Assembly: GCA_963665275.2 (NCBI GenBank)
Contig: CAXXIN010000014.1
Span: 146,028-210,027 of the forward strand
DNA from: Negativicutes bacterium
Lineage (GTDB): Bacteria > Bacillota > Negativicutes > UBA1444
DNA: 64,000 bases
Direction of reading: 5' to 3'
Numbering within the stretch: the stretch's first letter is position 1; the number at the start of each line of letters is the position of its first letter. Made by a program: the position numbers and the translations under genes. Shown in pieces: positions 31,311-50,136 of the stretch. Under the pieces are notes generated by a model, which made no database searches, was not told the origin of the DNA, and saw only the letters and a list, made by a program, of their open reading frames with translations.

Positions 31311-31365
31311 GAAAACAGCAGCAGAGATTTTGTAACAATGTTATAAAATCTCTGCTGCTGTTTTC
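31311..31365. repeat. 55-bp inverted repeat centred on operator box 1
   Basis: 26-bp arms with one mismatch and a 3-nt loop. Confidence 0.85.
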
Positions 31366-31418
31366 GATAAAGTTCGTTTCGTTGTTCTAATGTGCTAAAA
31401 GCGAATTAAGCATAGACT
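31330..31418 (+). promoter_or_regulatory. Conserved bipartite promoter, copy 1
   Basis: TTGTAAC-AAT-GTTATAA (31330-46); half-site GTTCTAA ending 31390; -35 ATGTGC; -10 TAGACT (31413-18). Confidence 0.75.
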
Positions 31419-31484
31419 TAGAAATAGGCTGGTGGGTTTGCATGGACTTCACCAGGCAAAAACCTGAGAGGGGGAAGTGGCAGA

Positions 31485-32879
31485 ATGAAAAATATGAGGC
31501 ATGCTTTCACCCATTTCGTTTTCGCGGTTCTCTTGCTGGTTTTCCTGCCGGCTGCCGCTGGCCCTGCGGAAGATTACAAGGAAGCCCGCTTGCTATATCT
31601 GAGTGCTGCGGCTAGTTTGGCAGCTTATCCCGGTATGGATGGCGATATTGTCATGGGCGCGGTCGGGCGCGATGGCTGGGAGATAGTACCGTATATCCAA
31701 AAAGACACAGCTGCCAAGGCAAAGTTTTTCTTTGCCAGCAAGGAAGTGCCGTCTAAGCCTACGGAATATTTGTTGGCGATTGCCGGAACTTCTACCCGCA
31801 CAGATCTCAAGTTGGATTTGCAAATTGGCAAAGTGTTTTTTGCCGGCAAAACCTTTGATGAGTTTCAGGCTAATGCAACAATTAAACCGGCATTTCCTGA
31901 ACAGGTGCCCATGGTTCATGAAGGCTTCAATCGACATGTTCAAACCGCTTTTTCGGCGGAGACACAGTCGGATGGCAGTAAGCCGGGACGTAAAATAGTG
32001 GAGTTAATGTTGGAGCATCCAGACAGCGTTGTGTATTTGGCAGGACATAGTGCCGGGGGCAGTGCGGCCACGCTGCTCGGAGCCCGTCTCGTCAGCATGG
32101 GAGTAAAGCCCGGGCAAATAAAAATTATCACGTTCGGTGCTCCGGCCGTTGGTAATAAAGTGTTTGCTGAGAAGTATGAGCAAGATTTGGAGCAGATTCG
32201 CGTAGTGGTTGCAGGCGATCCGATCCCCGATCTGCTGAAAGTGTTTACCCGCGGATATCAGCACTTTGGTCGGGAAATCCGCTGGACTACCTCAGGGTAT
32301 ACATTCGACGAAAAGCACTATCCAAATATTTATTTGGATTGCGCTATCAAAAATTACTATGACAAGCGTTTAGCGGCAGCTGCAGCAGGGGACTCCGATG
32401 CCGTATTGCCTAATGAAACACCTGCCGTCGAAGGTGCACGTCTATATATTGCAGAGATCAACAACAGTTTGACTAAATCGCTGGGCGAGGAATTCGAGTA
32501 CATGCGTGAAGTATTGTTGGATCAATATCGGATAGCGATACCGGCCTATGTCATTGGAACTCCCGTTGAAAATGACTCGTCACATTTCGAAGCGCTGCGA
32601 GCCAAAGCGGCAGAGGCGTCCTGCGATCGAATGGTGATTGTGAACATTTGGGGGAGTACGCAGAATGATCCGGCCGTCTATGATAAAGGCCTGATGTCCA
32701 AACCGGACGAGCCCTACGACCTGATTGTGCTTGAACAAACTGTATTTCGTGTTTCAGACGGAGCTCTGTTAGGCGGAAGAACTTATCAAAAAGGATCAAA
32801 ATATTTTACACCGCTGGGTGCGTTAGCATCAGCAGCAGTTGCCATGGGCAGCGACAGTGCCGCTTGGAGCGGACAATAA
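31485..32879 (+). CDS. Exported class-3 lipase family protein
   Basis: Signal peptide, LAIAGT, VHEGF, LAGHSAGG, ITFGAP.VGN, GDPIP. Confidence 0.85.
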   Translation: MKNMRHAFTHFVFAVLLLVFLPAAAGPAEDYKEARLLYLSAAASLAAYPGMDGDIVMGAVGRDGWEIVPYIQKDTAAKAKFFFASKEVPSKPTEYLLAIAGTSTRTDLKLDLQIGKVFFAGKTFDEFQANATIKPAFPEQVPMVHEGFNRHVQTAFSAETQSDGSKPGRKIVELMLEHPDSVVYLAGHSAGGSAATLLGARLVSMGVKPGQIKIITFGAPAVGNKVFAEKYEQDLEQIRVVVAGDPIPDLLKVFTRGYQHFGREIRWTTSGYTFDEKHYPNIYLDCAIKNYYDKRLAAAAAGDSDAVLPNETPAVEGARLYIAEINNSLTKSLGEEFEYMREVLLDQYRIAIPAYVIGTPVENDSSHFEALRAKAAEASCDRMVIVNIWGSTQNDPAVYDKGLMSKPDEPYDLIVLEQTVFRVSDGALLGGRTYQKGSKYFTPLGALASAAVAMGSDSAAWSGQ

Positions 32880-32906
32880 ATGATTGTGGAAGGAGTAATG
32901 AAAAAA

Positions 32907-33374
32907 ATGAAAGGTGACACGAAACTGATTGAAACGTTGAATGGATTGCTGTCGGGAGAACTTACGGCCGTCAACCAATACATTGTTCACGCAGAGATGT
33001 GCGCTAACTGGGGTTATGGTAAGCTACACGATCATTTCGAGACGAGGGCAATTGATGAAATGAAACACGTTGGCCTGCTCATTTCCCGGATTCTATTCCT
33101 GGAAGGCATACCCATCGTTAGTGAACTCAATAAAATTCATATTGGCGAAGACGTGGCTAATATGTTCCAAAATGACCACAGGCATGAAAAAAAGACCATT
33201 GAAGACTACAACGAGGCGATCGAAGTAGCCGGCAAGGCCAAAGATTTTGCAACGCGTGAAATATTGGAAGGCATCCTCAGCGATGAGGATGGACACATTA
33301 ACGCCATCGAAGAGAATCAGGTGCAAATTGTTCAAATAACGTTAGAAATGTATCTGTCGACAAAGGTTGGATAA
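32907..33374 (+). CDS. bfr: Bacterioferritin
   Basis: MKGD start, ELTAVNQY, IDEMKH (haem-ligating Met), DEDGH. Confidence 0.92.
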   Translation: MKGDTKLIETLNGLLSGELTAVNQYIVHAEMCANWGYGKLHDHFETRAIDEMKHVGLLISRILFLEGIPIVSELNKIHIGEDVANMFQNDHRHEKKTIEDYNEAIEVAGKAKDFATREILEGILSDEDGHINAIEENQVQIVQITLEMYLSTKVG

Positions 33375-33411
33375 TTTACCGCTGAAAAATAAATTATGGG
33401 AGAGTGTAATG

Positions 33412-33612
33412 ATGAACGAAGATATTCTGGAAGGGAAATGGCATGAACTGAAAGGCGGAGTCAAAGCGAAGTGGGGAAAACTAACCGAAGACGATCTCAC
33501 CTTGGTGAACGGAGAATCCGAAAAACTCATGGGAGTTCTCCAAACACGATATGGGTATACCCGGGACAAAGCCAAAGAGGAATATGATCAATTTATCAAC
33601 AACCAAAAATAA
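33412..33612 (+). CDS. CsbD/YjbJ-family stress protein
   Basis: MNEDILEGKWHELKG.VK.KWGKLT.DDL...G.LQ.RYG. Confidence 0.9.
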   Translation: MNEDILEGKWHELKGGVKAKWGKLTEDDLTLVNGESEKLMGVLQTRYGYTRDKAKEEYDQFINNQK

Positions 33613-33654
33613 GCCTTTATCAGGGTAAAGGCATTTGTTAGAGGAGAAAAAAAT

Positions 33655-33975
33655 ATGTCATTTATGGATTTGTTGCCAAAAAGCAATGTGGAACGCAAGC
33701 GCAATGCGCGTGAACAAGCTGCAGTTGGAGCCGCGATTGGCGTGACAGTCGGCGCCGTTGCCGGGATATTGCTGGCGCCAAAAGCTGGCAGAGAAACCAG
33801 GGCGGAACTTGTAACAAACATTCAGGAATTGCCGGAAAAAGTCCGGGAGTTGTCTGAAAAAACCAAAGAACTGGCTGGTGAAGCGAGGGGAAAAATCGCC
33901 GCAAAAATTAAAAAAGATCTATGTGGTTGCCCAGAAGCAGAGCCAGTTGAAAAAGAAGACTTTTCAACTGAATGA
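33655..33975 (+). CDS. YtxH-domain protein
   Basis: GAAIG.TVGAVAGILLAPKAGRETR. Confidence 0.9.
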   Translation: MSFMDLLPKSNVERKRNAREQAAVGAAIGVTVGAVAGILLAPKAGRETRAELVTNIQELPEKVRELSEKTKELAGEARGKIAAKIKKDLCGCPEAEPVEKEDFSTE

Positions 33976-33997
33976 TTAAAGAAGGGGGGCAGTTATT

Positions 33998-34771
33998 GTG
34001 CTTAATAAAGCGAAAAATTTAGCAGGTTATACTTTGCTCGCGCGCGACGGAGAAGTGGGTAAGGTCAAAGAATTCTATTTCGATGATCATCACTGGACCG
34101 TTCGCTATCTGGTCGTCGATACAGGAAACTGGATTTCTGGTCGACAAGTTTTAATTTCGCCGTATGTGATCACAGCGGTGAATACACTCGAGAAAAACTT
34201 CGAGGTCGCCCTGACGAAAAAACAAATTGAGAACAGTCCGTCATTAGAAACGGACAAGCCCGTTTCACGGCAATTTGAGGAAGTGTACAACGGGTACTAT
34301 GAATTGCCGATGTATTGGAATGGTCCATTTGTATGGGGAGAACATCCTTTCATTGATCGCAACCATCAAAAATCGCAGCCCATAAACCCGGGTGGAAAAA
34401 CTTGGGACCCGAATCTGCGCAGTACAGCCGCCGTAACCGGCTACAACATTGAAGCGGCAGATGGCGATATAGGGAATGTCGACGATTTTATCATTGATGA
34501 TGAGACGTGGAGCATTCGTTATATGGTTGTCGACACTGTGAACTGGTGGCCGGGGAAAAAGGTTCTGGTTTCGCCACTCTGGATTGAACGCGTGAGTTGG
34601 GCCCAGTCGAAAGTATTCGTTACTCTTTCCCGCGATGCCATTAAGAAGTCGCCAGAATACACTGAGAAGTTGCTGTTGAATCGCGAATATGAGACAGCAC
34701 TGCATAAACATTACCGTCGTACGGGATACTGGGATGATGAGCAGGCTTTCAGAGAGCATACTACCTTATAG
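33998..34771 (+). CDS. Tandem PRC-barrel protein
   Basis: Two repeats of A.DG..G.V..F..DD..W..RY.VVDT.NW..G..VL.SP. Confidence 0.88.
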   Translation: MLNKAKNLAGYTLLARDGEVGKVKEFYFDDHHWTVRYLVVDTGNWISGRQVLISPYVITAVNTLEKNFEVALTKKQIENSPSLETDKPVSRQFEEVYNGYYELPMYWNGPFVWGEHPFIDRNHQKSQPINPGGKTWDPNLRSTAAVTGYNIEAADGDIGNVDDFIIDDETWSIRYMVVDTVNWWPGKKVLVSPLWIERVSWAQSKVFVTLSRDAIKKSPEYTEKLLLNREYETALHKHYRRTGYWDDEQAFREHTTL

Positions 34772-34793
34772 ATAAATCCGTCAGTCTGGATAA

Positions 34794-34837
34794 ATGACAA
34801 GCCGTGTTCCGATGAAGTTCGGAACACGGCTTGTCAT
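34794..34837. terminator. Bidirectional hairpin between convergent genes
   Basis: Perfect 19-bp arms ATGACAAGCCGTGTTCCGA / TCGGAACACGGCTTGTCAT. Confidence 0.8.
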
Positions 34838-34855
34838 GAGTACGTCGGGTTTCGG

Positions 34856-37822
34856 TTAAGGCTTGACTATATCTGAAGTGATATCATCAATGGTCATGTA
34901 TACCTGATACGGTTTGTTTTCTCCAGGCCAGAACTGCGGAATTGCGTTGACGCGAATCCAGATGAGGTTTTTTTTAAGCGGGGGCCGTAATCCCATGACG
35001 ACCTCGTGAACTTTTTGACCGGTTGTCAGGGCCGTGATGGCGGGTTGCTCTTCTCTTGGGAAGTCGGTCCCGTCTTTGCGCAAGGTTTTGCCCAGGGGAT
35101 TAAAGGGATCGCGTTTCTTCATCTTGTCGACCGTTAGTCCCAGTATTCTTTCTGCCGCAGAATTGGCATCAAGAATCTGGCCTTTATCATTCAGAAAAAT
35201 TACTCCCTGCGGCATCGTTTCAAATAAGATACGGTATTTGGACTCGGTTTCACGCAGTGCCGACTGGGTTCGTTTCATCTGGGAAATATTGAAGAAAGAA
35301 ATGACGCCGCCTTCAATTACGTTTTCCAGGGTGCGATAGGGCGATATATGAAGCAAAAACCACTCTCCCAGCTTGCTTTGAACTTCCACCTCGAGAGGAA
35401 TGAGCGTTTCCAATACGGACTGCAAGTCTTCAACAAGGGAATTATAAGCGACCAGATTGGACGCGATATGTTCCACGGGCCTGCCAATATCTGACTGGAT
35501 CAGGTTAATGACCTGGGTGGCCGCCGGGGTGAAACGCCGGATGCGAAGTTGGTGGTCAACAAAAACAGTTCCAACACCGGTGCCGGCCAACAAATTGTTC
35601 ATATCGTTATTGACCCAGGTGAGATCCGTTACTTTGGCCTGAAGTTCGGCGTTGACGGTGTATAGTTCCTCGTTGACGGATTGCAGTTCCTCCTTGGATG
35701 TTTCCATTTCTTCGTTCGTCGACTGCAACTCCTCATTGACGGCCTGCATTTCGTCATTGGAAGTTTCCCTGGCTTCGTTGGCTCGTTGTAGATATTCTTC
35801 CTTGAGTTTCAATTCTCGTTTCAATTCTTCGATAAAAGGGGAAGTGCTTTCATTTTCAGCAAATTCTTTTGAGTTCGCAAGGGCGGGGATGCTTTGACAA
35901 GGGTGATTTATATCTTGTGCGCGCTCCAGGATGACGAGGAACAGGGTCGTTCCTGTGCCTGACGAGGAGTCAATCCCGACAGGTTTGACTGTCAGGTCAA
36001 TGACGGATAGGGTCTCTTTCATTTTGACCGTTAGACCTTTACGGACGATCTTCTCATTCTGCTTCACCGCTTTTTGCAGCGCGCGGGTAATCTCTTTTTG
36101 CAGGACTCCGTGCGCCATTTTCAGGAGACTATTCAGCCGCTGTTCGCCTTGCGCAGGTTCCAGGTATTGACCGGCATACCCCTCGAGATAGAGCAGGTCG
36201 CCATGTTCGTTGACCAGAGCGCCGACCGCAGCATAATGTTCAAGCAGGGCCTGTTCGGTTAATTCGCGCAAGGAGATTCTCGGTTTATCGAAATTTCTGC
36301 CGGAATTTTGGAACGTAGCCGGAGAATCAGGCCGCGGTGACGGATACTTCATGCGAGTAGGACGGGCAGACCCCAAAAGATCTTCTTTGCGTTGATAAAG
36401 TTTTGCCTGTGGGTCGATGGTGGTGAATACATCAGCATATTCGCCGACAGTCTCCGACGTTCCCAAAAATAGTATTCCGCAGGAGTTCAAAGCAAAGTGG
36501 AACAAGCGGAGGATTCTTTTTTGCAAATCAGGCTCCAGATAAATCAGCAAATTGCGGCAACTGATCAGATTGAGCTTCGAAAAAGGCGGATCTTTTATCA
36601 AGTCATGTTCAGAAAATATCAGGAGGTCTCGAATTGTTTTGTGTACCCGATAACTGCCGTCAGTACTCGGAACAAAAAAGCGCGCCAACCGTTCCGGGGT
36701 CAAATCTGCTGCAACCGTTTCGGGATAGAGGGCGGATCGCCCCCGCGCAATGGCTTTGCTGTCGATGTCGGTTGCAAACACCTGTAGTTTGAAGTGCTGT
36801 TTCAGCGCATCCATCCGTTCTTGCAGCAAAATGGCGATTGAATAGGCTTCTTCACCGGTTGAACAGGCAGGCACCCAGACCCGGATCGCCGAACCGGGCA
36901 TTTTGCCCTCGAATAAGGAGGGGATCACTTGGGACTCGAGAACAGCAAAGGCTTCTTTGTCGCGAAAAAAACTGGTGACACCGATCAACAGATCTTTGAA
37001 TAGAAGATCCAGCTCTGCTGGCGTCTGCTGCAAATAACGGAGGTATTCTTCCGGACCCGACAGCTTGTGAACAGCCATTCGCCTTGCTACCCGACGACTG
37101 ATGGTATTGGGCTTGTATAGGGAAAAATCATGTCCGGTGTGGGCAAGCAGCAGGGTGAATATTTTTTTCATCGTATCGTCAGGGCGTGCGGAGGGCGGTG
37201 GCGCGTGGGTGACAAAATCAATTAGTGCCGCCGGCATTTCAGCGGGTGGCAGGACATAATCCACCACCCCGGCAGCGATGACGCTGCGCGGCATGCCGTC
37301 ATATTCCGCGGATTCAGTGTTTTGCGACATTACCATGCCGCCTTCGTCTTTGATCGCAATCGCTCCCAAAGTACCATCATTGCCAGTTCCTGAAAGTATG
37401 ACGCCGATGGCGAGTTCGTGTTGGGCAGCTGCAAGTGAAAGAAAGAACATGTCGATTGGTAGTCGTTGCCCCCTGGGCGAGGACGGTTTCGATAATTGCA
37501 AAGACCCATTTACCAGCGTCATGTCCCGGTTGGGGGGGATGACATAAACATGATTGGTCTGGATGATTGTCCCATCTTCGACTTCCGTGACTGGCATGCT
37601 GGTATGTTTTTGAATCAGTTCACAGAGAAGGCTTTTGTGGTCGGGAGCTAAATGTTGAATCAAAACAAAGGCCATGCCGGTATCGAGGGCAGCAGGCATG
37701 GCCGAAAAGAAAGCGTCAAACGCTGCAAGACCACCAGCGGAGGCGCCGATGGCTACGATGGGAACCGGCGTAAGTACGCCAGACGGTTTTTTTGAAGGAA
37801 TCCGTTTTTTATTCATTGTCAT
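34856..37822 (-). CDS. CheB/CheR fusion with coiled coil and two PAS domains; no kinase domain
   Basis: Che[17 protein letters not shown]; Che[30 protein letters not shown]; [10 protein letters not shown] helix; PAS-PAS. Confidence 0.93.
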
Positions 37823-38067
37823 GGCAGCCTCCAGTATATATGCGTTGTAGTAAGGGCTACCCCTTTGATCGGTGCGTAATACATCATTATATCACTTTTA
37901 AAAGAAAAATGATGAATAATTATAAATTTTCAGACTAATATGGCGGTGATGATAGGAACACTGATAATATCTGTGTTATATTATAATTGACAGATGAATA
38001 TTGAGAGTGGACTTTCGGACTCAAGGAGCGCCGGGTCTATATTGAAATATCAGGGAGGACTAAGGGG

Positions 38068-39435
38068 ATGCCAAAGAAAAAAAACGCGCTAGAGGCAATC
38101 AATGACGCGGTAGAAGTCGCCGGTGAGGAACGTCGGCGACTGGCGGAGACTATAGTTCGGGAAACTATGGAGCAGGCGCCGGACGAGCCGGGAGAGCTCA
38201 CCGTAGATACGGCGAGTCGGTTGCTTCATGAACTGCGAGTGCATCAAATCGAGCTGGAAATGCAGAACAATGAGCTGCGTCGGTCCCAACAGGGACTGGA
38301 AAAGTCCCGCACGCTATTTTTCGAGTTATATAATCTGGCGCCAGTAGGTTATGTTACGCTAAACGAAAAAGGCATGATCGTGGGGGCGAATTTTACATTT
38401 GCCGCGATGGTGGATGCAACGATGAGTACGATTCTGGCAAAGCCGTTTTCTCAATTTGTCTGTCATGACGACCAAGATATTTACTATTGCTGGGAAAAGA
38501 AACTCAGGAAAAAGAATGCTTCGCACACGTGTGAGTTGCGGTTGGAAAAGAAAGATGGCACGCAATTTTGGATACATCTGGTGGCCAACCTAACACAGGA
38601 TGCTGATGGGAAAAGAGTCATTCGCGTCGTGGTGAGCGATATTTCTGAATTGAAAAAAACGGAGCACGAACTGGCTGCAGCCAATCGTACCATCGAGGAA
38701 ACGTCCAAGGCGAAGTCGATTTTCCTGGCCAACATGTCCCATGAATTACGGACTCCGCTCAACACGATCATCGGATTTTCTGAAGTGATGCAGGATGAAT
38801 TGTTTGGGCCTCTGAATGCGAAGCAGATGACATTTGTGGAGAACATCCTGAACAGCGGACGACACCTGCTCAGTCTCATCAACGATATTCTCGATATCAG
38901 CAAAGTGGAAGCGCAAAAAATGACTCTGGAGCTGGACCGTATAAACCTGGCGGATATATGCAAAGGAACTGTGGCTGCATTCAGCGAAAAAGCACGCAAA
39001 AAAGAGGTCACATTGGCCTATTCGTTTGATCCAAACCTAGTCGACGTGCCGATAGTTGCTGACGGGCGTAAAATCAAACAAATCCTCTATAACCTTGTCG
39101 ATAACGGCATTAAATTCAATCACTCACAGGGGTCTGTAAGCATATCGGTTCAAAAAGACAGTGACCTCGCGATCCCTGCAGGGATAAAAATTATCGTGGA
39201 AGACACTGGAATCGGAATAGCAGACGAGGATCAAGAGAAGCTGTTCCTGCCGTTCAGCCAGCTGGCGCAGTCGTATTACGATCGACAAACGGAGGGGACC
39301 GGATTGGGACTGGCCCTGACCAAGCATCTGGTTGAACTGCACGGTGGCAAGATCTTTCTTCAGAGTGACCCAGGGCAAGGGTCTCGGTTCACTATTGTAT
39401 TACCGTTGAATCGGCATGAATCCGGCAACGTCTAA
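38068..39435 (+). CDS. Cytoplasmic PAS histidine kinase
   Basis: LHELRVHQIELEMQN coiled coil, PAS, MSHELRTPL, NLVDNGIKF, DTGIGI, GTGLGL. Confidence 0.93.
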   Translation: MPKKKNALEAINDAVEVAGEERRRLAETIVRETMEQAPDEPGELTVDTASRLLHELRVHQIELEMQNNELRRSQQGLEKSRTLFFELYNLAPVGYVTLNEKGMIVGANFTFAAMVDATMSTILAKPFSQFVCHDDQDIYYCWEKKLRKKNASHTCELRLEKKDGTQFWIHLVANLTQDADGKRVIRVVVSDISELKKTEHELAAANRTIEETSKAKSIFLANMSHELRTPLNTIIGFSEVMQDELFGPLNAKQMTFVENILNSGRHLLSLINDILDISKVEAQKMTLELDRINLADICKGTVAAFSEKARKKEVTLAYSFDPNLVDVPIVADGRKIKQILYNLVDNGIKFNHSQGSVSISVQKDSDLAIPAGIKIIVEDTGIGIADEDQEKLFLPFSQLAQSYYDRQTEGTGLGLALTKHLVELHGGKIFLQSDPGQGSRFTIVLPLNRHESGNV

Positions 39436-39446: not shown

Positions 39447-39851
39447 ATGGCCAAAACAATTCTGGTTGTAGAAGATAATGAAATGAATCGACTATTAATG
39501 GTCGAAGTATTGAGACATTACGGGTATGAGGTTCTGGAAGCCAGCAATGGCGCCCAGGCTTTGCTATTGACCCGTGAGCAGCCAATCGACCTGATCATAA
39601 TGGACATGCAAATGCCGATTATGAATGGGTATGAAACGATCAAAGTTCTTCGGTCCGATGCAAGAACCGCCGGGATCAAGATTATTGCGGTCACCTCCTT
39701 TGCACTCGACGAGGAAAAGAACCGCATCCTCGCGACGGGTATCGATGTATTTGTGCCTAAACCGATTGATACCCGTACATTCTCCAAACTGGTAAAACAA
39801 ATTCTTGATCAGAGCAATAACGCGCCGTTTAAAGGCGGGAGGGAACAATGA
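39447..39851 (+). CDS. Single-domain response regulator (DivK/CheY-like)
   Basis: VVEDN, IMDMQMP, AVTS, KPID. Confidence 0.92.
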   Translation: MAKTILVVEDNEMNRLLMVEVLRHYGYEVLEASNGAQALLLTREQPIDLIIMDMQMPIMNGYETIKVLRSDARTAGIKIIAVTSFALDEEKNRILATGIDVFVPKPIDTRTFSKLVKQILDQSNNAPFKGGREQ

Positions 39852-41478: not shown

Positions 41479-41536
41479 AGGAAGCAGGCAAGAGGGGGCT
41501 TATGCTATGGCATAAGCCCCCTCTTGCCTGCTTCCT
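41479..41536 (+). terminator. Long perfect hairpin after the regulator gene
   Basis: 27-bp perfect arms, 4-nt loop. Confidence 0.8.
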
Positions 41537-41572: not shown

Positions 41573-41660
41573 TTGTAACAACGTAATAAATCAGCCCAGA
41601 TTTATTGCCTAAATTTCATTTCGTCGTTCTAATGTACTCCGTGTGACTTTAGCGTAATCT
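41573..41660 (+). promoter_or_regulatory. Conserved bipartite promoter, copy 2
   Basis: TTGTAAC-AAC-GTAATAA (41573-89); GTTCTAA ending 41632; -35 ATGTAC; -10 TAATCT (41655-60). Confidence 0.75.
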
Positions 41661-41779: not shown

Positions 41780-42346
41780 ATGAAAATGAAATCGATCGTC
41801 AAAACTTTTGCCGTCCTATTGGTGTTTGTGTTCAGCATTTCGGTGGCCAGTGCCGCCAGCTTGACCGAGCAACGTCAACACATCCGGGATATTTCACGTA
41901 CAACGCTATTGAAGCTCTACGACTTGCAGCCAGCTGCGCGAGGCTACGTTGAAAATGCCGCCGGGTATGGCGTGTTCGGAAATTGGGGCGTGAAGCTCCT
42001 GTTCATCGGTGGCGGAACCGGCAAGGGAATGGCTGTGAACAATAGCAACAATCATGAAACCTTCATGGATATGGTTGCCGGCACAGTCGGGTTTGGACTC
42101 GGTGCAAAAACTTACAACGTCGTATTCATCTTTGAAACCGAACAGGCATTGGAAGACTTTACGAACAATGGCTGGCAGTTTGGCGGGCAAGTTTCGGCGG
42201 TGGCTACAGATAGCGTGGCGGGCGGCGGCTATCAGGGAGCTTTCTCCGTATCGCCTGGCGTGTGGATGTATGAAATGACTGACACGGGGCTAGCGTTGGA
42301 AGTTACGCTCAAAGGCACCAAATTTTCGAAGAATGACTTGAACTGA
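41780..42346 (+). CDS. Exported YSC84/SYLF-like lipid-binding protein
   Basis: Signal peptide, AAGYGVF, GGGTGKG, GFGLGAK, GWQFGG, GLALE.TLKGTK. Confidence 0.8.
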   Translation: MKMKSIVKTFAVLLVFVFSISVASAASLTEQRQHIRDISRTTLLKLYDLQPAARGYVENAAGYGVFGNWGVKLLFIGGGTGKGMAVNNSNNHETFMDMVAGTVGFGLGAKTYNVVFIFETEQALEDFTNNGWQFGGQVSAVATDSVAGGGYQGAFSVSPGVWMYEMTDTGLALEVTLKGTKFSKNDLN

Positions 42347-42410
42347 ACAAAGATAAGGTGCTCGTCAGATTGCCAAATAAAATCCCCAATAAAGTAAGGA
42401 GTGAGGTTAG

Positions 42411-42734
42411 ATGTCTAAATGGGTTATTCGATTGGGTGTTTGCCTATTGATGATGGCTTTGCAGGAGGGGTTGTGTTTCACGGCGTCGGCGGCGCCGATA
42501 TATGATGATCGCCAACAGACGGTACAACCGGCATTGACGGTGCAGGAACAGGAATTGCTTGAACGAAAACAGCAGGAGATCCGTCGACATGAACAAGCGA
42601 TGCTGCAGCGAGGCGATGAGAGTGTATCAGACTGGGAGTGGCGACAATATCAGGAACGTGAACAACATATCCTGAATATGCAGCAAATTCAAGATGATGG
42701 AATGAAGGTTGTCGGTACGCCTGTTAACTGGTGA
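42411..42734 (+). CDS. Exported hypothetical Gln/Glu-rich helical protein
   Basis: RBS AGGAGTGAGG, signal peptide ending ASA, RRHEQAMLQR..ES..DWEWRQ. Confidence 0.7.
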   Translation: MSKWVIRLGVCLLMMALQEGLCFTASAAPIYDDRQQTVQPALTVQEQELLERKQQEIRRHEQAMLQRGDESVSDWEWRQYQEREQHILNMQQIQDDGMKVVGTPVNW

Positions 42735-42773
42735 ATTACAGGAGGCTGTAAACGATGAAAGGAGTTGCATTAG

Positions 42774-42893
42774 ATGATACTCAAGCAGATGACTGCTGTC
42801 ATATTCGTCCTGGTGTTGACTTCACTGCTTCCTTTCTTCAGACCCTTCTATGAACCGGTTAAAATCATATATCGCTACATCTATCCGTTTTAG
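42774..42893 (+). CDS. Candidate 39-aa membrane peptide
   Basis: AAAGGAG RBS; MILKQMTAVIFVLVLTSLLPFFRPFYEPVKIIYRYIYPF. Overlaps an alternative 32-aa ORF (42755-42853). Confidence 0.35.
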   Translation: MILKQMTAVIFVLVLTSLLPFFRPFYEPVKIIYRYIYPF

Positions 42894-42993
42894 ACAAGAG
42901 GATGCAGCCCTCGACAAAAGTATGACAATAGCCAGTTTCGTAGGATTTGAAGCTGGGGATCAAAAAATAAAATATGAAATGAGGGAAAACAGT

Positions 42994-44415
42994 ATGCGAA
43001 ATAAGGTTTTGTCCATGATGATGACGTTTATCTTTCTGGCAGCGATGGGATCTTCCGCACTAGCGGCCACAATATATCAGAATAGGCCGACGGGATCCGA
43101 TCCGGCTGCTTCCGCCAGCTACTATATTTGGCAGGACGGCGATCGCTGGCATGTACAGACAGTCAATACCGGAGCGCGCCATTTGTTTACAGGAACGGTT
43201 GAGACGGACGGAGCGTTTTCCGATGTGTCAGCCATGGCATCGGAGAATTCCGAACGAATTGCGATGAAAGTGCGTAACCAGAAAATAGAATTCAGCTTCA
43301 ATTCTCTGGCGAGAACCGATGGGTTTTCTTTCACCGTTTCAGGCAGTCAGAACGCGACGTTCACACTCTACATCGATGACCGGCCCGTCGATCCGGCCAA
43401 TATCTATCTCGGTCGACAGAATCGGCATCCAAACAGTTATTCCTTTCCTCTCAACAATTCAACCAATTATTCCTATAATAATGATCCCGTCAACCTGTTG
43501 CGCTTCCAAGGGCAGCCGACGGCCCTGAATACGGGTAATATTCTCGGCTACTTCATTTGGCAGGAAGGTGACCGTTGGTTTCTGAAAACGACGACCCAAG
43601 GAGCACAGCGCCAATTCGCTGGGACTATCAGAACGGGCGGTACTTTTGTCAATGTGACCCGGAACAGCCTGGAGGACAATGATATCGTCAAACTCAACGA
43701 AGCTAGCAACGAGATTGGCTTTACCCTGAGGACGGAAAACGATCAGGATGGGATATCTTTTCAACTAAACAACACAATGGATGCAACTTTCATGCTTTTC
43801 CTCGACGGCCAGGCCATCAATCCGTTGAATGTTTATCTGGGATCACAAAATCTCCATCCAAGTGTTAATCCTTTCAGCATGAATACTCGCGACGACCAAT
43901 ACAATCAATACAACATGAACGATAGCCAGGTTCTTCCCTCTGCTTCGTATGACCAGACATTTCCAGAACCGACGACCTATCAGACGATTGTCTCTTCCTA
44001 TGCGCAGGGACAACCTGATGAACTAAACCCCGGTGAAGTGTTTGGCTACTTTATCTGGCAGGATGATCAAAACCGTTGGACGTTGCAAACTACGACAAAA
44101 GGTGCGCAGCGGAACTTTACCGGTACGATTGAAACGGGCGGGACGTTTTCCGATGTGAGGATACTGCAGTCAATGCGGCCGTCGGGAACCTGGGTGGACA
44201 CAACCGTAAGCAACCGAATCAACTTTTCTTTCAAGCCCGGTGATTCTGATCAAACCGACAAGATGGGCGGGTTATCGTTCCTGGTGACCGATGGATCGGA
44301 CATCCGATTCAAGCTGTCTGTCGATGGCAGGCCTATCGATCCGACTAAAATATATCTCGGCAAAGCAGGCTATCACCCGACAAACAGCGCAGTGAAAATT
44401 TACTCCAGCAATTAA
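42994..44415 (+). CDS. Exported protein with three tandem ~125-aa beta-rich repeats
   Basis: Signal peptide; three copies of Y.IWQ..RW..T..GA..F.GT..T.G.F..V ... F.L..D..P..IYLG..HP. Confidence 0.75.
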   Translation: MRNKVLSMMMTFIFLAAMGSSALAATIYQNRPTGSDPAASASYYIWQDGDRWHVQTVNTGARHLFTGTVETDGAFSDVSAMASENSERIAMKVRNQKIEFSFNSLARTDGFSFTVSGSQNATFTLYIDDRPVDPANIYLGRQNRHPNSYSFPLNNSTNYSYNNDPVNLLRFQGQPTALNTGNILGYFIWQEGDRWFLKTTTQGAQRQFAGTIRTGGTFVNVTRNSLEDNDIVKLNEASNEIGFTLRTENDQDGISFQLNNTMDATFMLFLDGQAINPLNVYLGSQNLHPSVNPFSMNTRDDQYNQYNMNDSQVLPSASYDQTFPEPTTYQTIVSSYAQGQPDELNPGEVFGYFIWQDDQNRWTLQTTTKGAQRNFTGTIETGGTFSDVRILQSMRPSGTWVDTTVSNRINFSFKPGDSDQTDKMGGLSFLVTDGSDIRFKLSVDGRPIDPTKIYLGKAGYHPTNSAVKIYSSN

Positions 44416-44465
44416 TGTGAAGACAGTCTTAGCAGGCGAATAATGAATCAAAGAAGGTGATAATT

Positions 44466-44615
44466 ATGTTAGAAACGATTGTTGTTATTCTCGTGGTGCT
44501 GTGGCTTCTTGGCATGGTTAGCGCTTACACGATGGGCGGATTGATCCACCTACTGCTCGTAATTGCGATAGTTGTAGTTCTGTTGCGAGTAATCAGAGGC
44601 AGACGGGTACTGTAG
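44466..44615 (+). CDS. lmo0937-family (DUF5670) small membrane protein
   Basis: Below the ORF-track cut-off: MLETIVVILVVLWLLGMVSAYTMGGLIHLLLVIAIVVVLLRVIRGRRVL; RBS AAGGTG. Confidence 0.88.
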   Translation: MLETIVVILVVLWLLGMVSAYTMGGLIHLLLVIAIVVVLLRVIRGRRVL

Positions 44616-44696
44616 TCGACGTTCGATATAGGTACAGGCTCACCTGGGCGCAGGTGAGCCTGGGGTGAAAATGAATTTTGGTTGGAGATGTATAAA

Positions 44697-45080
44697 ATGG
44701 AAGAAATGATCAAACAAAGGGAAACTCTCAATACGAGTCAACAAGGGGACACTGTTCAACGCATTGTTGGTATCGTCTTTGGCGCGATCGAAATTACTCT
44801 GGCATTTCGATTGGTGTTTAAACTATTGGGGGCAAACCCGGAAAATGGATTTGTCCAGGGAATCTATGCTTTTACGCATTATTTCGTGGTAGCATTTGTC
44901 GGTATTTTTTCACGCAGCACCACACAGGGGTCACAGACCCTGGCGGTCTTTGAACCGGCAACCGTAATCGCGATGGTGGTCGTCGCCTTGATTGCCTGGG
45001 CTGTACTTAAGATGAGCAAACCACATACCGGCAACCATGTTGAAAGAACTGAATACACAAACATGCCCAGTAGCAAATAA
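44697..45080 (+). CDS. YggT-like membrane protein
   Basis: FGAIE..LAFR..FKLLGANP.NGFV..IY, FEPATVIAMVV. Confidence 0.7.
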   Translation: MEEMIKQRETLNTSQQGDTVQRIVGIVFGAIEITLAFRLVFKLLGANPENGFVQGIYAFTHYFVVAFVGIFSRSTTQGSQTLAVFEPATVIAMVVVALIAWAVLKMSKPHTGNHVERTEYTNMPSSK

Positions 45081-45112
45081 AGAACAAGAGCCTCAGCGAG
45101 GCGGGAGGAAAC

Positions 45113-45913
45113 ATGAAACAGCAAACCACAATCATGGTGGTAGATGACAATTCGTTAAACCTCAGCCTAATGGAGGCCATGCTTACGTCCGCAGGATACG
45201 GAGTGACCCTGTGCGAGTCAGGGGACGCTTGTCTGGAAGCGGTCCGGGAAAATGCGCCTGATATTATTTTGGTTGATGCGATGTTGCCAGACTTAAAGGG
45301 GTTTCAAGTCCTCCGGCAGCTGAAGGCGAATGAAACAACACTGATGATTCCCGTGATTATGGTGACTTCCCAGTTGGACCTGAATGACCGGATTGAAGCG
45401 ATAAACGCTGGAGCGGACGATTTCCTGACCAAACCGATAACTCGAATTGAACTTCTGGCTCGAGTACGAGCAATACTTAAAGTCAAAGCGTGCAATGATC
45501 AAGTCATCGAAAGCGAGCAACGCTACCGTGAACTGGTACAGAGCGCCAACGTCATCATCTTCGCTACAGACAGCGAAGGCAAGATCAGCTTCATGAATGA
45601 ATATGGACTGGATTTTTTCGGCTACGAACCCGGAGAAATTATTGGCAAGACGGAGCTTGAAACCATCCTGCCTGAGTATGAATCAACGGGGCGGAATTTA
45701 AACATAAATGCCGAAGCGGTCAAAAATAATATTAATCTGTATCAACGATACAATCATGAAAATATCACCAAGTCGGGCCGAAGGGTATGGGTGGATTGGA
45801 CAAACCGCTGTGTCGCCGATAAGAACACCGGGAAAATGGGTCTGCTATCCGTTGGGGTCGATTTTACCGCTGCAAGAGGAATGCAACAAAAAAGTGAAGT
45901 AAAGGATGCGTGA
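45113..45913 (+). CDS. REC-PAS protein; paralog of the 39848 regulator lacking the DNA-binding half
   Basis: Colinear with the first ~255 aa of 39848..41452; own RBS GGGAGG; phosphoacceptor Asp retained (ILVD). Confidence 0.88.
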   Translation: MKQQTTIMVVDDNSLNLSLMEAMLTSAGYGVTLCESGDACLEAVRENAPDIILVDAMLPDLKGFQVLRQLKANETTLMIPVIMVTSQLDLNDRIEAINAGADDFLTKPITRIELLARVRAILKVKACNDQVIESEQRYRELVQSANVIIFATDSEGKISFMNEYGLDFFGYEPGEIIGKTELETILPEYESTGRNLNINAEAVKNNINLYQRYNHENITKSGRRVWVDWTNRCVADKNTGKMGLLSVGVDFTAARGMQQKSEVKDA

Positions 45914-46209
45914 AGTGTACTGTGGAAAAGCGAAACGAATTCATCAAAAAATTTGAAGAAAATCTCAATGATTATAATGCAAAAGTAGCTGAACTAAAAG
46001 CCAGAGCTGTCGAAGATAAAGCCGAGTTGAAGGCGGAATATCTTTCCCAGATCGAAAAAATAGATCATAAACGAGATGAGTTTGTAATGAAGTTCGGGAA
46101 ACTCAAAAATGCCAACGGACAAGCATGGACAGATCTTCAAGGCGGAACTGAAAAAGCTTGGCATGAGCTTGAACATTCTTATGAAATGGCAGCTTCCCGT
46201 TTCAAATAG
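45910..46209 (+). CDS. Small coiled-coil stress-type protein (sll1863-like)
   Basis: R.EFI.K.E..L.......ELKA.A...LK.A...AW.DL..G.EKAW.EL...A.SRFK. Confidence 0.7.
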   Translation: MKCTVEKRNEFIKKFEENLNDYNAKVAELKARAVEDKAELKAEYLSQIEKIDHKRDEFVMKFGKLKNANGQAWTDLQGGTEKAWHELEHSYEMAASRFK

Positions 46210-46291
46210 GATCAGTTCTTTTGCGACAGTCCGATGAACCGGAGAGGCAATCCTTGCCGGCGCATCGGACTTATTTTTTTAAAGGAGGCCT

Positions 46292-47395
46292 GTGAGGATG
46301 CAAAAGATCATGCTGCAAGTTATCCAAAAAAAATGGTGGCTGCTTGGAGCGGCTGTTTTGATTGCTGCGGCCATTTATGGATATCAGACATATCAGACCG
46401 CCAACACGCCTGCACCCACAGGGCGGCCATACAAAGTGGAACGCGGCGACGTAGTTGCAGTCGTATCGGCGACAGGAACCCTATCGCCAGTCAATAGTGT
46501 TGATGTCAGCTCACGCATCACAGGCCGGATTACCGAGGTGCGCGTCAATGAAAATGATATGGTCAAGGCGGCCCAAATTATCATTGTGCTGGATGACCGG
46601 CAATTGAAGGCACAAGTAGCCCAGGCTGGGGCCAAGCTGGAAAACGCACTGGTCACCTACCAGCGATCACAACGACTGGCAGATGTTGGTGCGATTGCGT
46701 TGCAGCAGCTGGATGCTGACCGGACCAACTATTCAGTGACTAAAGCCGCTTATGATGATATTGCGTCCAGCCTCGATGATACGATCATCCGTGCGCCGAT
46801 CGATGGAATGGTCATCGGCAAACCGATTCCCGCCGGTCAGACCGTGGCTCCCGGTATCTCTAATCCAATGGTTCTGTTGACGGTGGCCGATATGGCTCAG
46901 ATGCAGATCCAGGCGCTTGTTGACGAATCGGATATCGGTCAAATCAAGCTGGGGCAAAAAGTTAGATTTACTGTGGACTCCTACCCCTCCAAAATTTTCA
47001 GCGGCAGTGTGCAAGTCATCTCCAACAAGGCTAACATCACGCAAAACGTGGTGTATTATACCGTTTATATTGATGTAGAATCGCCAGAGGGTCTACTCAA
47101 ACCTACAATGACGGCACGGGTATCCTTCAACGTCGGAGAACGCAATAATGTCTTGGTGATTCCTCTTCTGGCAGTCAAAGACAACAAGGGACAACGGGTA
47201 GTCCAGTTGGTGGGGGCGGATGGAAAGCCCCAATCGAAGAACATCACCACCGGATTGGCCAGTGAGGATCAGATCGAAGTTGTGAGCGGATTGGCAGATG
47301 GTGATGTGCTGATGTTGCCGCAGACCAAAGGAACGACAGGAACCGGCGCTGCGGCAGGCGGCATGAATATTTTCCGGCAGACACCGGGCCGATAG
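46292..47395 (+). CDS. Efflux membrane fusion protein (MacA/YknX-like)
   Basis: TM anchor, SATGTL.P...V.V.S, IRAPIDG, VDESDIG. Confidence 0.9.
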   Translation: MRMQKIMLQVIQKKWWLLGAAVLIAAAIYGYQTYQTANTPAPTGRPYKVERGDVVAVVSATGTLSPVNSVDVSSRITGRITEVRVNENDMVKAAQIIIVLDDRQLKAQVAQAGAKLENALVTYQRSQRLADVGAIALQQLDADRTNYSVTKAAYDDIASSLDDTIIRAPIDGMVIGKPIPAGQTVAPGISNPMVLLTVADMAQMQIQALVDESDIGQIKLGQKVRFTVDSYPSKIFSGSVQVISNKANITQNVVYYTVYIDVESPEGLLKPTMTARVSFNVGERNNVLVIPLLAVKDNKGQRVVQLVGADGKPQSKNITTGLASEDQIEVVSGLADGDVLMLPQTKGTTGTGAAAGGMNIFRQTPGR

Positions 47396-47408
47396 GAGTG
47401 ATGGCGTA

Positions 47409-48122
47409 ATGCAGGATACTATTGTTTTGAAGGACATTGTAAAAACTTACCTGATGGGAGATACTACGGTTCGGGCTCTTGCCGGAATAGATTTGACGAT
47501 TGGAGCTGGCGAATTTACCGCTATCATGGGGCCTTCCGGTTCCGGTAAGTCGACATTGATGAATATTCTCGGCTGTCTGGACCGACCGACCAGCGGATCC
47601 TATCAACTGGACGGCAGAGAAGTGGCGCAGCTGGGTGATGATGAACTCGCCGTGACCCGCAACAAGAAAATCGGTTTCGTATTTCAGAACTTCAACCTGC
47701 TGGCCCGGATGTCTTCACTGCAGAATGTGGCGCTGCCGATGACCTATGCGGGGGTAAACAAGCAACAGCGACTGGAAAGCGCCAGCAATGCATTGGAACA
47801 AGTGGGTTTGAAAGACCGAATGAACCATCTCCCGACTGAATTGTCCGGTGGTCAGCGCCAACGGGTGGCGATCGCACGGGCGCTGGTCAATAAACCGGCG
47901 ATTTTGCTGGCGGACGAACCGACAGGCAACCTTGACACCAAAGCCGGCGACGAAATTATGGCCATTTTTTGCGATCTCAACAAGCAGGGACGAACGGTTG
48001 TCATCGTGACTCATGAACCGGATATTGCCGAATATACCCGGAGGGTCATCCGTTTCCGCGACGGCCTCATGGTCAGCGATGAGAGGAGGGAAAGCAAATG
48101 TTTTGGGAAAGTGTCTCCATAG
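47409..48122 (+). CDS. ABC transporter ATP-binding protein (MacB/YknY-like)
   Basis: GPSGSGKST, LSGGQRQR, LADEPTGNLD. Confidence 0.95.
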   Translation: MQDTIVLKDIVKTYLMGDTTVRALAGIDLTIGAGEFTAIMGPSGSGKSTLMNILGCLDRPTSGSYQLDGREVAQLGDDELAVTRNKKIGFVFQNFNLLARMSSLQNVALPMTYAGVNKQQRLESASNALEQVGLKDRMNHLPTELSGGQRQRVAIARALVNKPAILLADEPTGNLDTKAGDEIMAIFCDLNKQGRTVVIVTHEPDIAEYTRRVIRFRDGLMVSDERRESKCFGKVSP

Positions 48123-49312
48123 CTTTTGAAGGGCTGCGGGCCAATAAAATGCGTTCTCTCCTCACCATGCTTGGCATTATCATCGGCGTGGGCGCGGTCA
48201 TCGCCATGGTTTCTATCGGCATGGGCGTTCGGGATAAGGTGCAGAAATCCATTGCCAGCCTGGGCAGCAACCTGCTTATCGTCATGCCTGGCTCCACAGC
48301 ACCGTCTGGGGTGCGGGTGGCGGCAGGCGGGACGACGACTCTTACCTACGACGATTCACAGGCGATTGCCCGGGAAATCAGCGGAGTAACTTTTGTTGCG
48401 CCGCAGGTTCAGCGGCAATACCAATCAGTATTCGGCGGCAATAACTGGATTACATCCATGCAGGGTGTAACGCCGGATTTTATGACCGTCCGCAATTTTG
48501 AGGTTAGTGATGGAGCGTTCATTACACAACAACAACTGGAGGGGCGTGAGCGGGTTGCTGTTTTGGGCAAGACAGTGGTGGATAATTTGTTCGGTGGCAT
48601 CAGCCCGGTCGGTCAGGTCATCCGAATTAACAAATCCACTTTTCGGGTGATCGGTGTGCTGGCTACGAAAGGTCAGTCTGCTGGCGGACAGGATCAGGAC
48701 GATATGATTCTGGTCCCTCTGAAGACGGCGCAGGAACGGATGATGGGGATTAACTATGTGCAGTCAATCAGCGTTCAGGCGGAGAATGCCGAGGTAGTCG
48801 ATCAAGTATTGCGCGATATCACAACGCTGCTAAAGTCCAGGCATCGACTTCAACCGGGAGAGGCCGACGATTTCAGTGTCCGTAACCTGACGGCACTAAT
48901 GGCGACAGCTACTGAAACGACAGATACAATCACGCTGCTGCTGGGCAACACAGCAGCCATTTCGCTACTGGTCGGTGGGATAGGGATCATGAACATCATG
49001 CTGGTATCGGTTACCGAACGGACGCGAGAAATCGGTGTCCGTAAAGCGTTGGGAGCAACTTTTGCCAACATTCTTCTGCAGTTTCTCATCGAATCGATTG
49101 TTATCGGCGTAACTGGCGGCCTGATCGGCATCTTGCTCGGTACGGGAGCTTCTTACGCGATCTCCAGCATATTTGGCTGGTCCACGGTTATGTCGGGTTT
49201 TACGATTGCGCTGGCTTTTGGGTTCTCAGTCCTTATCGGGGTCATCTTTGGTCTGTATCCTGCCCGCAAAGCGGCCAAACTTGATCCAATCGACGCGCTG
49301 CGCTACGAGTGA
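48098..49312 (+). CDS. ABC transporter permease (MacB/YknZ-like)
   Basis: RSLLTMLGIIIG, VGGIGIMNIMLVSVTERTREIG, PARKAAKLDPIDALRYE. Confidence 0.95.
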   Translation: MFWESVSIAFEGLRANKMRSLLTMLGIIIGVGAVIAMVSIGMGVRDKVQKSIASLGSNLLIVMPGSTAPSGVRVAAGGTTTLTYDDSQAIAREISGVTFVAPQVQRQYQSVFGGNNWITSMQGVTPDFMTVRNFEVSDGAFITQQQLEGRERVAVLGKTVVDNLFGGISPVGQVIRINKSTFRVIGVLATKGQSAGGQDQDDMILVPLKTAQERMMGINYVQSISVQAENAEVVDQVLRDITTLLKSRHRLQPGEADDFSVRNLTALMATATETTDTITLLLGNTAAISLLVGGIGIMNIMLVSVTERTREIGVRKALGATFANILLQFLIESIVIGVTGGLIGILLGTGASYAISSIFGWSTVMSGFTIALAFGFSVLIGVIFGLYPARKAAKLDPIDALRYE

Positions 49313-49376
49313 TGCAAACCAAAGAGGTTGGCGAAAGATTGGCGCAGCAAATGAACGTTGTAATTCCTGGGCGATA

Positions 49377-49465
49377 TTATAACAACGTTCTAATATCGTC
49401 GGTGTTTTAGGGTATAAACTTCAATTCATCATACTAATGTGCTTTATGTGACTTTGGCGTATTCT
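49377..49465 (+). promoter_or_regulatory. Conserved bipartite promoter, copy 3
   Basis: TTATAAC-AAC-GTTCTAA (49377-93); ATACTAA ending 49437; -35 ATGTGC; -10 TATTCT (49460-65). Confidence 0.72.
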
Positions 49466-49593
49466 ATAGATAGACGCGAACAACGCATTCGTTGGGCCAA
49501 ATAAACAATACATACGCTGACTCGTGATGAGCGAACTGAAAATCAGCGCCCGCACCCCATAAGATGGACCTGACTAAAGGGGGAAAGAACGCA

Positions 49594-49659
49594 ATGCTAT
49601 ACACAATTTTGGCTGTTATTCTTGCAGTAGTGATCATGCAATATTTCGGCATCATGTAA
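49594..49659 (+). CDS. Candidate 21-aa single-TM peptide
   Basis: MLYTILAVILAVVIMQYFGIM after AAAGGGGG; first ORF downstream of promoter copy 3. Confidence 0.5.
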   Translation: MLYTILAVILAVVIMQYFGIM

Positions 49660-49707
49660 AGGAACCTTGACGGAACAGGAAACTTCGAAACGTGAAGGGA
49701 TAAAAAG

Positions 49708-49992
49708 ATGAACATTCATCATCTATCGTTGGCATTCATAGTTGCGCTTCTCTTGAGTTTTGGTTCGGTTGAAGCCCGGGAGTACAAAATAATAGCCTAT
49801 ACTGTGGATGCTGACGACACGATGGATAGTATTACGCGAACCTACCTTCCTTCAGATCGAGGGGATTCGATCGAGGCTTTTGCCGAGTTTAAAGAAGGGA
49901 TTTTCGAGTACAATTACGATCGGGTTTTCAGCGCCCGCATTCCGTATGAGGTGCGGGCAGGAGACTGCCTATATATAACCTTTTGGGAATGA
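49708..49992 (+). CDS. Small exported protein with LysM-like pattern
   Basis: Signal peptide; YTV..DDT..SI...Y ... I.E.N ... VRAGD.LYI. Confidence 0.5.
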   Translation: MNIHHLSLAFIVALLLSFGSVEAREYKIIAYTVDADDTMDSITRTYLPSDRGDSIEAFAEFKEGIFEYNYDRVFSARIPYEVRAGDCLYITFWE

Positions 49993-50039
49993 AGTTGCTG
50001 GCATAGCACAAGATTATCTGGATAAGTGAATCGGTTTTT

Positions 50040-50136
50040 TTGTAATAAAGTTATGAAAAAAGCCAGACTCACTTGTCCAGAATTCGTTTTGCTGCTCGGT
50101 TGCGCTATTGCGCTATAAATGTTTTTAACGTAATCT
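50040..50136 (+). promoter_or_regulatory. Degenerate fourth copy of the bipartite promoter (8-bp insertion)
   Basis: TTGTAAT-AAA-GTTATGA (50040-56); TTCGTTT at the same 27-bp offset as copy 1; -35 TTGCGC (50108-13); -10 TAATCT (50131-36). Confidence 0.5.

Follow-up and report, generated by a model that had tools for sequence, protein, structure and literature searches.

This locus raises the question of what a short palindrome, repeated in front of several operons of one bacterium, does there and how it came to be repeated. The window analysed is a stretch of 64,000 nucleotides from a Negativicutes bacterium (G000:C14:146028-210027), taken from a source assembly, G000, of 3.97 Mb that is 92.6% complete. 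A first-pass annotation of the bare sequence had described a 17-bp palindrome at 31330, 41573 and 49377, with a degenerate fourth copy at 50040, and had proposed that it marks a regulon activated by the REC-PAS-PucR protein of the open reading frame (ORF) at 39848. The first three boxes are exact at these positions and the fourth is present with 2 mismatches. What that description lacked is that the palindrome, here called box A, forms the apex of an extended inverted repeat, a terminator-like hairpin. It seems probable to us that the hairpin, the palindrome and the promoter that follows constitute a single terminator–operator–promoter module, whose copying as a unit has built a regulon, specific to this lineage, under a two-component PucR activator. 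The four copies in the window, delineated from sequence, are as follows.

31311–31365, + strand: hairpin of copy 1, 26 bp, terminator-like, with box A at its apex
31330–31346, + strand: box A of copy 1, a 17-bp palindrome and predicted PucR-family operator at about -87
31374–31418, + strand: predicted promoter of copy 1, with box B at 31374–31390, a weak -35 at 31390–31395 and a -10, TAGACT, at 31413–31418
41484–41531, + strand: strong terminator-like hairpin after the regulator gene, separate from copy 2
41573–41660, + strand: copy 2, with box A at 41573–41589, box B at 41616–41632, the -35 at 41632–41637 and a -10, TAATCT, at 41655–41660
49370–49465, + strand: copy 3, with a short hairpin, box A at 49377–49393, box B at 49421–49437 and a -10, TATTCT, at 49460–49465
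50017–50136, + strand: copy 4, with a long hairpin at 50017–50081 (including G.T pairs), box A at 50040–50056, a box B broken by a duplication and a -10, TAATCT, at 50131–50136

Architecture of the element and its hairpin

The anatomy of the element was taken from 37 aligned copies, later extended to 51. A GC-rich left arm is followed by box A (ttTTRT-N9-AYAAaa), the right arm, a T-tract, box B, 18 bp and finally the sequence GCRTAnnCTA. The spacing first described for this promoter was reproduced on remeasurement. The downstream half-site ends 44, 43 and 44 bp past box A in copies 1–3 and 52 bp past it in the fourth, the poor -35 hexamers read ATGTGC, ATGTAC and ATGTGC in copies 1–3, and a TAnnnT -10 starts 23 bp past the half-site in all four. 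The 8-bp insertion noted in the 50040 copy is a tandem duplication. The half-site itself needs redefinition, as its sequence is present but makes up the right-hand half of another, degenerate 17-mer (box B), which ends in CTAA and is followed by TG. The distance from box A to box B is constant within one base in 33 of 35 copies. If TAnnCT is read as a sigma-A -10, box B would be centred near -43, beside the poor -35, and box A near -87. A co-oriented ORF lies 3' of the element in 33/36 copies, by a loose criterion and with no control set. A pattern scan of the window gave 7 strand-matches against 1.0 ± 1.2 in shuffled sequence, with 0/100 shuffles reaching 7, an enrichment that is overstated because the pattern was derived from these same sites.

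A matrix scan with the tail of the element alone found no strong site that lacks box A. Two borderline tail-like sequences on the - strand, at G000:C3:60507 and C3:37436, scored only at the level of controls and were rejected as tail-only promoters; the former is upstream of an Hsp20-like gene and an 80-residue gene.

The stems that carry box A comprise 26 bp at 31311–31365, approximately 30 bp with G.T pairs at 50017–50081, and 28 perfectly paired bp in a copy on contig C18. The arms vary between copies yet remain complementary: over the 51 copies 330 of 561 positions form Watson–Crick pairs, compared with 215 ± 10 when arms are swapped between copies (0/5000 shuffles). Within well-paired arms the sense-strand mismatches are G.T in 15 cases and A.C in 3 (p = 0.008). 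A T-tract directly follows the hairpin, as in intrinsic terminators, and most copies combine a GC-based hairpin and a sense-strand U-tract with a position after a gene. Copy 2 (41573) is different in that its own arms have decayed, and the separate hairpin at 41484–41531 follows the regulator gene instead. The arms are retained in 22/36 copies for which the preceding gene is co-oriented and no other terminator was detected, against 2/10 otherwise (1/4 with another terminator and 1/6 with a divergent gene; p = 0.0003), a count that leaves out five copies without context and uses a detector that missed some terminators. At one extracted locus of a genome of the same genus (L010, in G006), the three element copies are the top terminator-like matches. 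The hairpin is thus likely to be an intrinsic terminator for the upstream gene. In the RNA of that gene, box A and the GC-rich arms would fold together and termination would take place before the T-tract, leaving the promoter insulated.

Two points weigh against the model of an operator-capped terminator. Covariation extends to the inner bases of box A (94/153 versus 74 ± 5), which an operator read purely by protein does not need, and the covariation statistics ignore relatedness between copies, while template switching could likewise perfect the arms. At L063:1-60 (G011:C158) an inverted duplicate of the left arm lies further upstream, which suggests that template switching can rebuild arms. 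The covariation that extends into the operator, together with the perfect 26–28 bp arms, the AT-rich top with its 3-nt loop and the fixed spacing from loop to promoter, would suit a hairpin that acts as a structured RNA or a DNA cruciform switch, either through antitermination by the regulator or through a supercoiling-dependent extrusion that hides box A. We consider such a switch very unlikely, as the characterised PucR proteins that were surveyed bind double-stranded DNA, and wherever another terminator or a divergent gene lies upstream the arms decay freely, with the tail left intact. A search of Rfam gave no family, the 9 weak matches, to miRNA hairpins only, all being far below the gathering score.

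The retention pattern also bears on whether the tail might be the promoter of an alternative sigma factor, with box A being merely terminator sequence. The tail does have highly conserved C residues at -14 and -8, unusual for sigma-A, and CRTAnnCT resembles what we take to be sporulation-type -10 boxes. However, the right half of box A is retained even where the hairpin is lost, and the sigma factors of G000 are limited to sigma-A, FliA, SigH and one frameshifted extracytoplasmic function (ECF) factor. No sigma factor specific to the element-bearing genomes was found, every sigma group of these genomes being present also in element-free G005 or G010, and the alternative is extremely improbable. 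The sole ECF gene (G000:C18:404701-405296) is frameshifted relative to its relatives, which may be an assembly error.

The REC-PAS-PucR regulator and its paralogs

The favoured reader of the operator–promoter module is the protein encoded at 39848, which lies between copies 1 and 2. It is listed here with other signalling genes, assigned from their domains.

34856–37822, - strand: CheB-CheR-PAS fusion, transcribed away from the kinase gene; a possible source of sensory input
38068–39435, + strand: PAS-HisKA-HATPase histidine kinase
39447–39851, + strand: single-domain receiver protein
39848–41452, + strand: REC-PAS-GGDEF_2-HTH_30 (PucR/CdaR-family) regulator
45113–45913, + strand: REC-PAS protein paralogous to the regulator (74% identity across 260 residues) that lacks the DNA-binding half

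The regulator ends in a PucR helix–turn–helix (HTH) domain (PF13556, 40.4 bits against a cut-off of 27) with the helix HKQTIVFRK, preceded by a GGDEF-like domain (PF17853, 33.8 bits against a cut-off of 24.5). Its receiver is intact, the acidic pair (at about D10–D12), D55, T85 and K107 being invariant in 19 homologs, and a kinase gene is found upstream of the regulator also at loci L069, L070, L072 and L074. With these residues and an adjacent kinase the protein has the attributes of a two-component response regulator, and phosphotransfer is predicted. A search with the C-terminal half returned 26 proteins, 24 of them at least 50% identical; the same half gave 0 matches in a sequence search of the PDB. 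The REC-PAS paralog at 45113–45913 is a possible feedback inhibitor or sink.

The regulator gene and the element are closely linked. Among a family set of 13 genomes that includes G000 and its relatives (G003, G005–G008, G010 and G011 among them), orthologs occur only in G000, G006 and G011, the other matches being at most 45% identical. The element lies 3' of the regulator gene in 12/12 loci, made up of the 3/3 ortholog genomes and 9/9 metagenomic loci, the latter being those in which the C-terminus is at least 60% identical. It starts 40–44 bp past the stop codon, or 120 bp past it in G000 and L069. The remaining 71 loci of the metagenomic scan yielded one partial, weak match to the element.

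From this arrangement a mechanism can be proposed. The PAS kinase (38068) would phosphorylate the receiver aspartate of the regulator, either directly or with the single receiver protein as a relay. As an oligomer, the regulator would then bind box A (TTTTRT-N9-AYAAAA, at about -87) and box B, the weaker site, which lies four helical turns further downstream (at about -43) and abuts the poor -35. It would recruit sigma-A polymerase to the TAnnCT -10. The original proposal that this protein activates the operons is strengthened by the 12/12 linkage, the family motif and the two-site layout, which make it the prime candidate, and is weakened by one relative, G007. This genome (100% complete, 70 contigs) has 3 copies of the element and no ortholog of the regulator, which partly matches an outcome that the first-pass annotation had named as refuting, the motif in genomes lacking the regulator. 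Two of the three copies are degenerate and two are near contig ends. The remaining points on that side are that the linked loci are not independent, as the L069 protein is 98% identical to that of G000 and L070 is close to G006; that five of the nine metagenomic loci share one assembly; and that a G007 paralog (helix HYQT) has an element-like apex, TTATAAT-TTT-GTTATAA. Because of this last feature, cross-talk between paralogs is possible.

Other PucR paralogs show a related arrangement. Behind the gene of a sister paralog (helix HPQT; C18:175382 in G000) stands a hairpin with the apex TTTTATCG-N5-CGATAAAA, both in G000 and in element-free genomes, an independent control that favours a PucR reader. 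The exact TTTTATCG-N5-CGATAAAA palindrome is found once each in 5/13 genomes, always just behind the HPQT paralog gene. The G000 hairpin (G000:C18:176257-176314) has a CG-centred palindrome and matches the element profile weakly (expectation value, E, 0.46). Further palindrome variants lie behind other PucR paralogs at 3/10 loci by pattern and at one more by eye. A strict test for operator-capped terminators found 1 among 11 PucR genes of G000, two others having been dropped by an overlap filter, compared with 3/2195 other genes; this low yield too counts against the model, and the idea that such terminators stand behind all PucR genes was rejected, as only a subset carries them. Pairs of paralogs in which helix and palindrome centre change together, with the 15 predicted sites described below, make PucR recognition directly testable.

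These paralogs suggest that the same promoter module might be read mainly by another PucR protein, or by several, with ORF 39848 as one reader or as linked cargo. G000 encodes 13 PucR proteins, the outer bases of the box are common to paralogs, and G007 combines copies of the element with the HYQT paralog and its element-like downstream apex. However, paralogs of HYQT size, with orthology judged by length only, are also present in element-free G003 and G010. High copy number occurs only alongside the ortholog (12, 11 and 9 matches, against 3 in G007), and the element stands behind the ortholog at every one of the 12 loci. Another reader is therefore unlikely, and the REC-PAS-PucR protein remains the preferred one.

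Distribution and spread of the element

The conserved unit is approximately 100–130 bp in length and is present in 15 copies in G000, 14 recovered by iterated profile searches and the fifteenth located at C5:88130. When 22 copies from other genomes were made into a profile, it recovered 14 of the G000 copies with E < 1e-4, the 50040 copy reaching E = 0.41, and the reversed G000 genome gave 0 matches; this profile is only partly independent, as its copies were first found with a model based on G000. Identity among the copies is 44–70% over a core of about 98 bp. They cannot then be the otherwise unrelated regions for which they had been taken, as they are homologous and have a common terminator-like hairpin, and the common consensus of arms and spacer indicates descent from one ancestor. 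Nor is the regulon self-contained in one island, because eleven copies lie outside the window, on seven other contigs.

With the sequence model the element was found in 4 of the 13 family genomes (12, 11, 9 and 3 matches), and the same 4 were the only carriers among 151 genomes of the class when 27 candidates were scored per genome. Taken with the copies beyond the window, this indicates an element restricted by lineage and not by island. The distribution is patchy and does not follow one clade, since G010 (100% complete), close to element-bearing G011 with a FliA that is 96% identical, has neither the element nor an ortholog of the regulator; this joint absence speaks for the pairing of the two.

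The module probably originated as an operator-capped terminator behind the regulator gene and would subsequently have been copied whole in front of acquired genes, many of general-stress types. The most distant homologs of the regulator have a single element before a small gene of 80 residues, which is consistent with an ancestral local arrangement. This 80-residue family (starting MFVV) is repeatedly found after PucR genes and operators (L010:7225-7473; G000:C3:59541-59780) and has no Pfam or NCBIfam match. Neither relics of the regulator gene ahead of other copies nor homology of the flanks past the element was seen, except between orthologous loci, and no flank homology marks a breakpoint. 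Concerted evolution within genomes was rejected, the nearest neighbour of a copy being in the same genome for 11/36 copies against 10 expected.

Gene order shifts just 3' of the element (E), from regulator-E-SYLF in G000 to regulator-E-lipase-E-SYLF in G011 and regulator-E-amylase-lipase-E in G006. In G007 alone a kinase and an element occupy the gap between glyS and ppdK, where G000 has none, and one G000 copy lies 65 bp after a tRNA-Leu. Such changes might be produced if the element were a site-specific recombination or cassette-capture site with a hairpin, integron-like or dif-like, at which genes are shuffled. Integron attC or dif-like sites would be expected to have a cognate recombinase close by and to mark every cassette boundary. 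Here, however, none of 10 tyrosine-recombinase matches adjoins a copy, the closest lying some 20 kb off, and the inserted genes have no site at their own 3' end. The tail does not resemble the one chromosomal dif-like sequence, on C9. The contigs of 4 public runs listed no joint at the element, and one strict pattern had no match in viral contigs. We accordingly find a recombination site quite improbable, and copying of a terminator–operator–promoter module is preferred. The dif-like site lies on the - strand of G000:C9, about 138 kb from the contig 3' end, and was compared using what we take to be the dif pattern.

Further remnants were noted near other copies. At L066:5357-5390 (G007:C19) a sequence resembling the right arm comes directly after glyS, where the insert of kinase and element has its other end. 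At L068:18454-18739 (G007:C5) an element with a degenerate -10 precedes a repeat shared with G000:C19:85007, presumably similar to an insertion-sequence end. In G011 a REC fragment lies between the lipase gene and an element copy.

Nijveen et al. (2012; PMC3575422) described, as putative mobile promoters, homologous sequences that lie upstream of unrelated genes in one genome; in this respect the element resembles them. Those sequences are at least 80% identical, mostly occur in pairs and have no known reader, whereas the element has up to 15 copies, a candidate regulator, a built-in terminator and 44–70% identity, the latter measured on whole cores and the published criterion being at least 80% over 50 nt before non-paralogous genes. 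If the proposed copying is correct, the element would show clearly how a regulon can grow through duplication of an insulated promoter, one that is portable and could serve as a synthetic part, although its reach is narrow, at 4/151 genomes of the class.

Predicted targets and comparison with known systems

The genes predicted to be controlled by the copies in the window are as follows.

31485–34771, + strand: copy 1 targets, namely lipase, bacterioferritin, CsbD, YtxH and a PRC-barrel protein
41780–49312, + strand: copy 2 targets, a predicted run with a putative joint transcript, including a SYLF/Ysc84 lipoprotein, ORFs without family, the REC-PAS paralog (45113–45913) and a MacAB-type ABC exporter, among others
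44466–44615, + strand: lmo0937-family protein, in the copy 2 run
45910–46209, + strand: sll1863-family stress protein, in the copy 2 run
49594–49992, + strand: copy 3 targets, a 21-residue hydrophobic peptide (49594–49659) and a 94-residue protein without assigned family (49708–49992)
50164–52845, + strand: copy 4 target, a RyR-domain protein with a Walker-A-like motif

The 21-residue hydrophobic ORF at 49594–49659 is the first behind copy 3 and has a ribosome-binding site.

Across G000 the genes that follow copies include the lipase-bacterioferritin-csbD-ytxH-PRC run, the SYLF lipoprotein, the lmo0937 and sll1863 families, csbD, kaiC-kaiB-kinase, P-type ATPases, and a glucose/sorbosone dehydrogenase together with rubrerythrin. 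One copy lacks a co-oriented gene, and a Mutator transposase interrupts another. In the relatives, copies also stand before yflT, phosphoketolase, ppk2, alpha-amylase, hybrid kinases and an alternative ATP synthase. In G000, 2/2 csbD genes, 2/2 of the sll1863 family, 1/2 ytxH, 1/3 bfr and 1/3 SYLF genes are found no more than 5 kb behind a copy, counts that are partly circular as the queries came from the island itself. In element-free G005 and G008, csbD lies behind an ordinary sigma-A-like promoter. Copies often stand before stress-type genes, yet several of the targets are not stress genes. With the enrichment partial, a stress regulon is only a lead.

The csbD, ytxH and yflT genes belong to the SigB regulon of B. 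subtilis (PMC7824861), and CsbD, YflT and bacterioferritin to that of B. cereus, where activation proceeds via the RsbK kinase, the RsbM methyltransferase and the RsbY receiver (PMC9912610). The csbD, ytxH, yflT and bacterioferritin families are thus shared with the targets here, and the kinase–methyltransferase–receiver input of B. cereus is paralleled by the CheB-CheR-PAS fusion, kinase and REC domain of the window. In contrast to the SigB systems, no SigB-like factor was found in the six genomes examined, the promoter consensus differs and the output is a predicted DNA-binding activator instead of a released sigma factor. The lmo0937 family lends weak support, because it is described as PrfA-regulated and has been tied to SigB only recently. 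More speculatively, the lineage may possess a general stress response without sigB, run by a phosphorylated PucR activator, in which csbD, ytxH, yflT, bacterioferritin, the sll1863 family, kaiBC and the alternative ATP synthase were acquired into a regulon built from a copied, self-insulating cassette, originally the terminator of the regulator gene, with sister PucR paralogs following the same design and their paralog-specific central bases forming a readable recognition code. We hold this wider proposal tentatively, and as somewhat doubtful; if the targets are co-induced, it would represent a further solution to general stress in bacteria without a detected sigB.

The closest relatives of the regulator itself are found among PucR-family proteins, whose DNA-binding mode is stated to be undefined (PMC13599513). 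MabR (Rv2242, of mycobacteria and Rhodococcus) likewise has a C-terminal module of GGDEF-like and HTH_30 domains, and forms dimers and tetramers (PMC11617747). Its binding site ahead of the -35, TTTTGT(N)9ACAAAT (10.1101/2025.09.25.678588), is a palindrome that matches the outer bases of box A, also upstream of a -35. MabR differs in its globin-like sensor and in its control of fasII; the present system has REC and PAS input behind a kinase, a second site, and a box A that caps a terminator-like hairpin. GabR of C. glutamicum and PutR/PrcR and AdeR of B. subtilis are activators on inverted repeats of 17–24 bp, the role and size predicted here for the boxes at about -87 and -43. The 17-bp inverted repeat of PutR, which the first-pass annotation had invoked, agrees with the published description (PMC7652997). 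GabR occupies a pair of 21-bp inverted repeats that lie from -87 to -23, by the -35 (PMC7652997), a layout similar to boxes A and B; unlike the present regulator, with its receiver domain and 15 dispersed predicted targets, it is described as local and metabolite-responsive, without a GGDEF-like domain. The characterised PucR/CdaR regulators surveyed are mostly local and ligand-gated, and the present one would be a receiver-controlled member with 15 predicted sites. Searches of an open-access library showed no description of a receiver-PucR regulon, of a PucR-family operator at a terminator apex, or of the stress response of this lineage.

Several minor features of the window remain. One public RNA run, matching at a small word share and available as contigs only, has short pieces behind copies 1–3; these are uninformative on starts and strand and were not used as evidence. 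From 52931 to 63847 there is a signalling block without the element, comprising a Cache kinase, REC-HDOD, REC-LuxR, MCP, CheW, GGDEF and HD proteins and a sigma-54 activator. At the left edge of the accessory block, just before copy 1, positions 30971–31290 contain a decayed gene remnant with paralog matches of approximately 45%, which we take to resemble a 2-hydroxyacid dehydrogenase.

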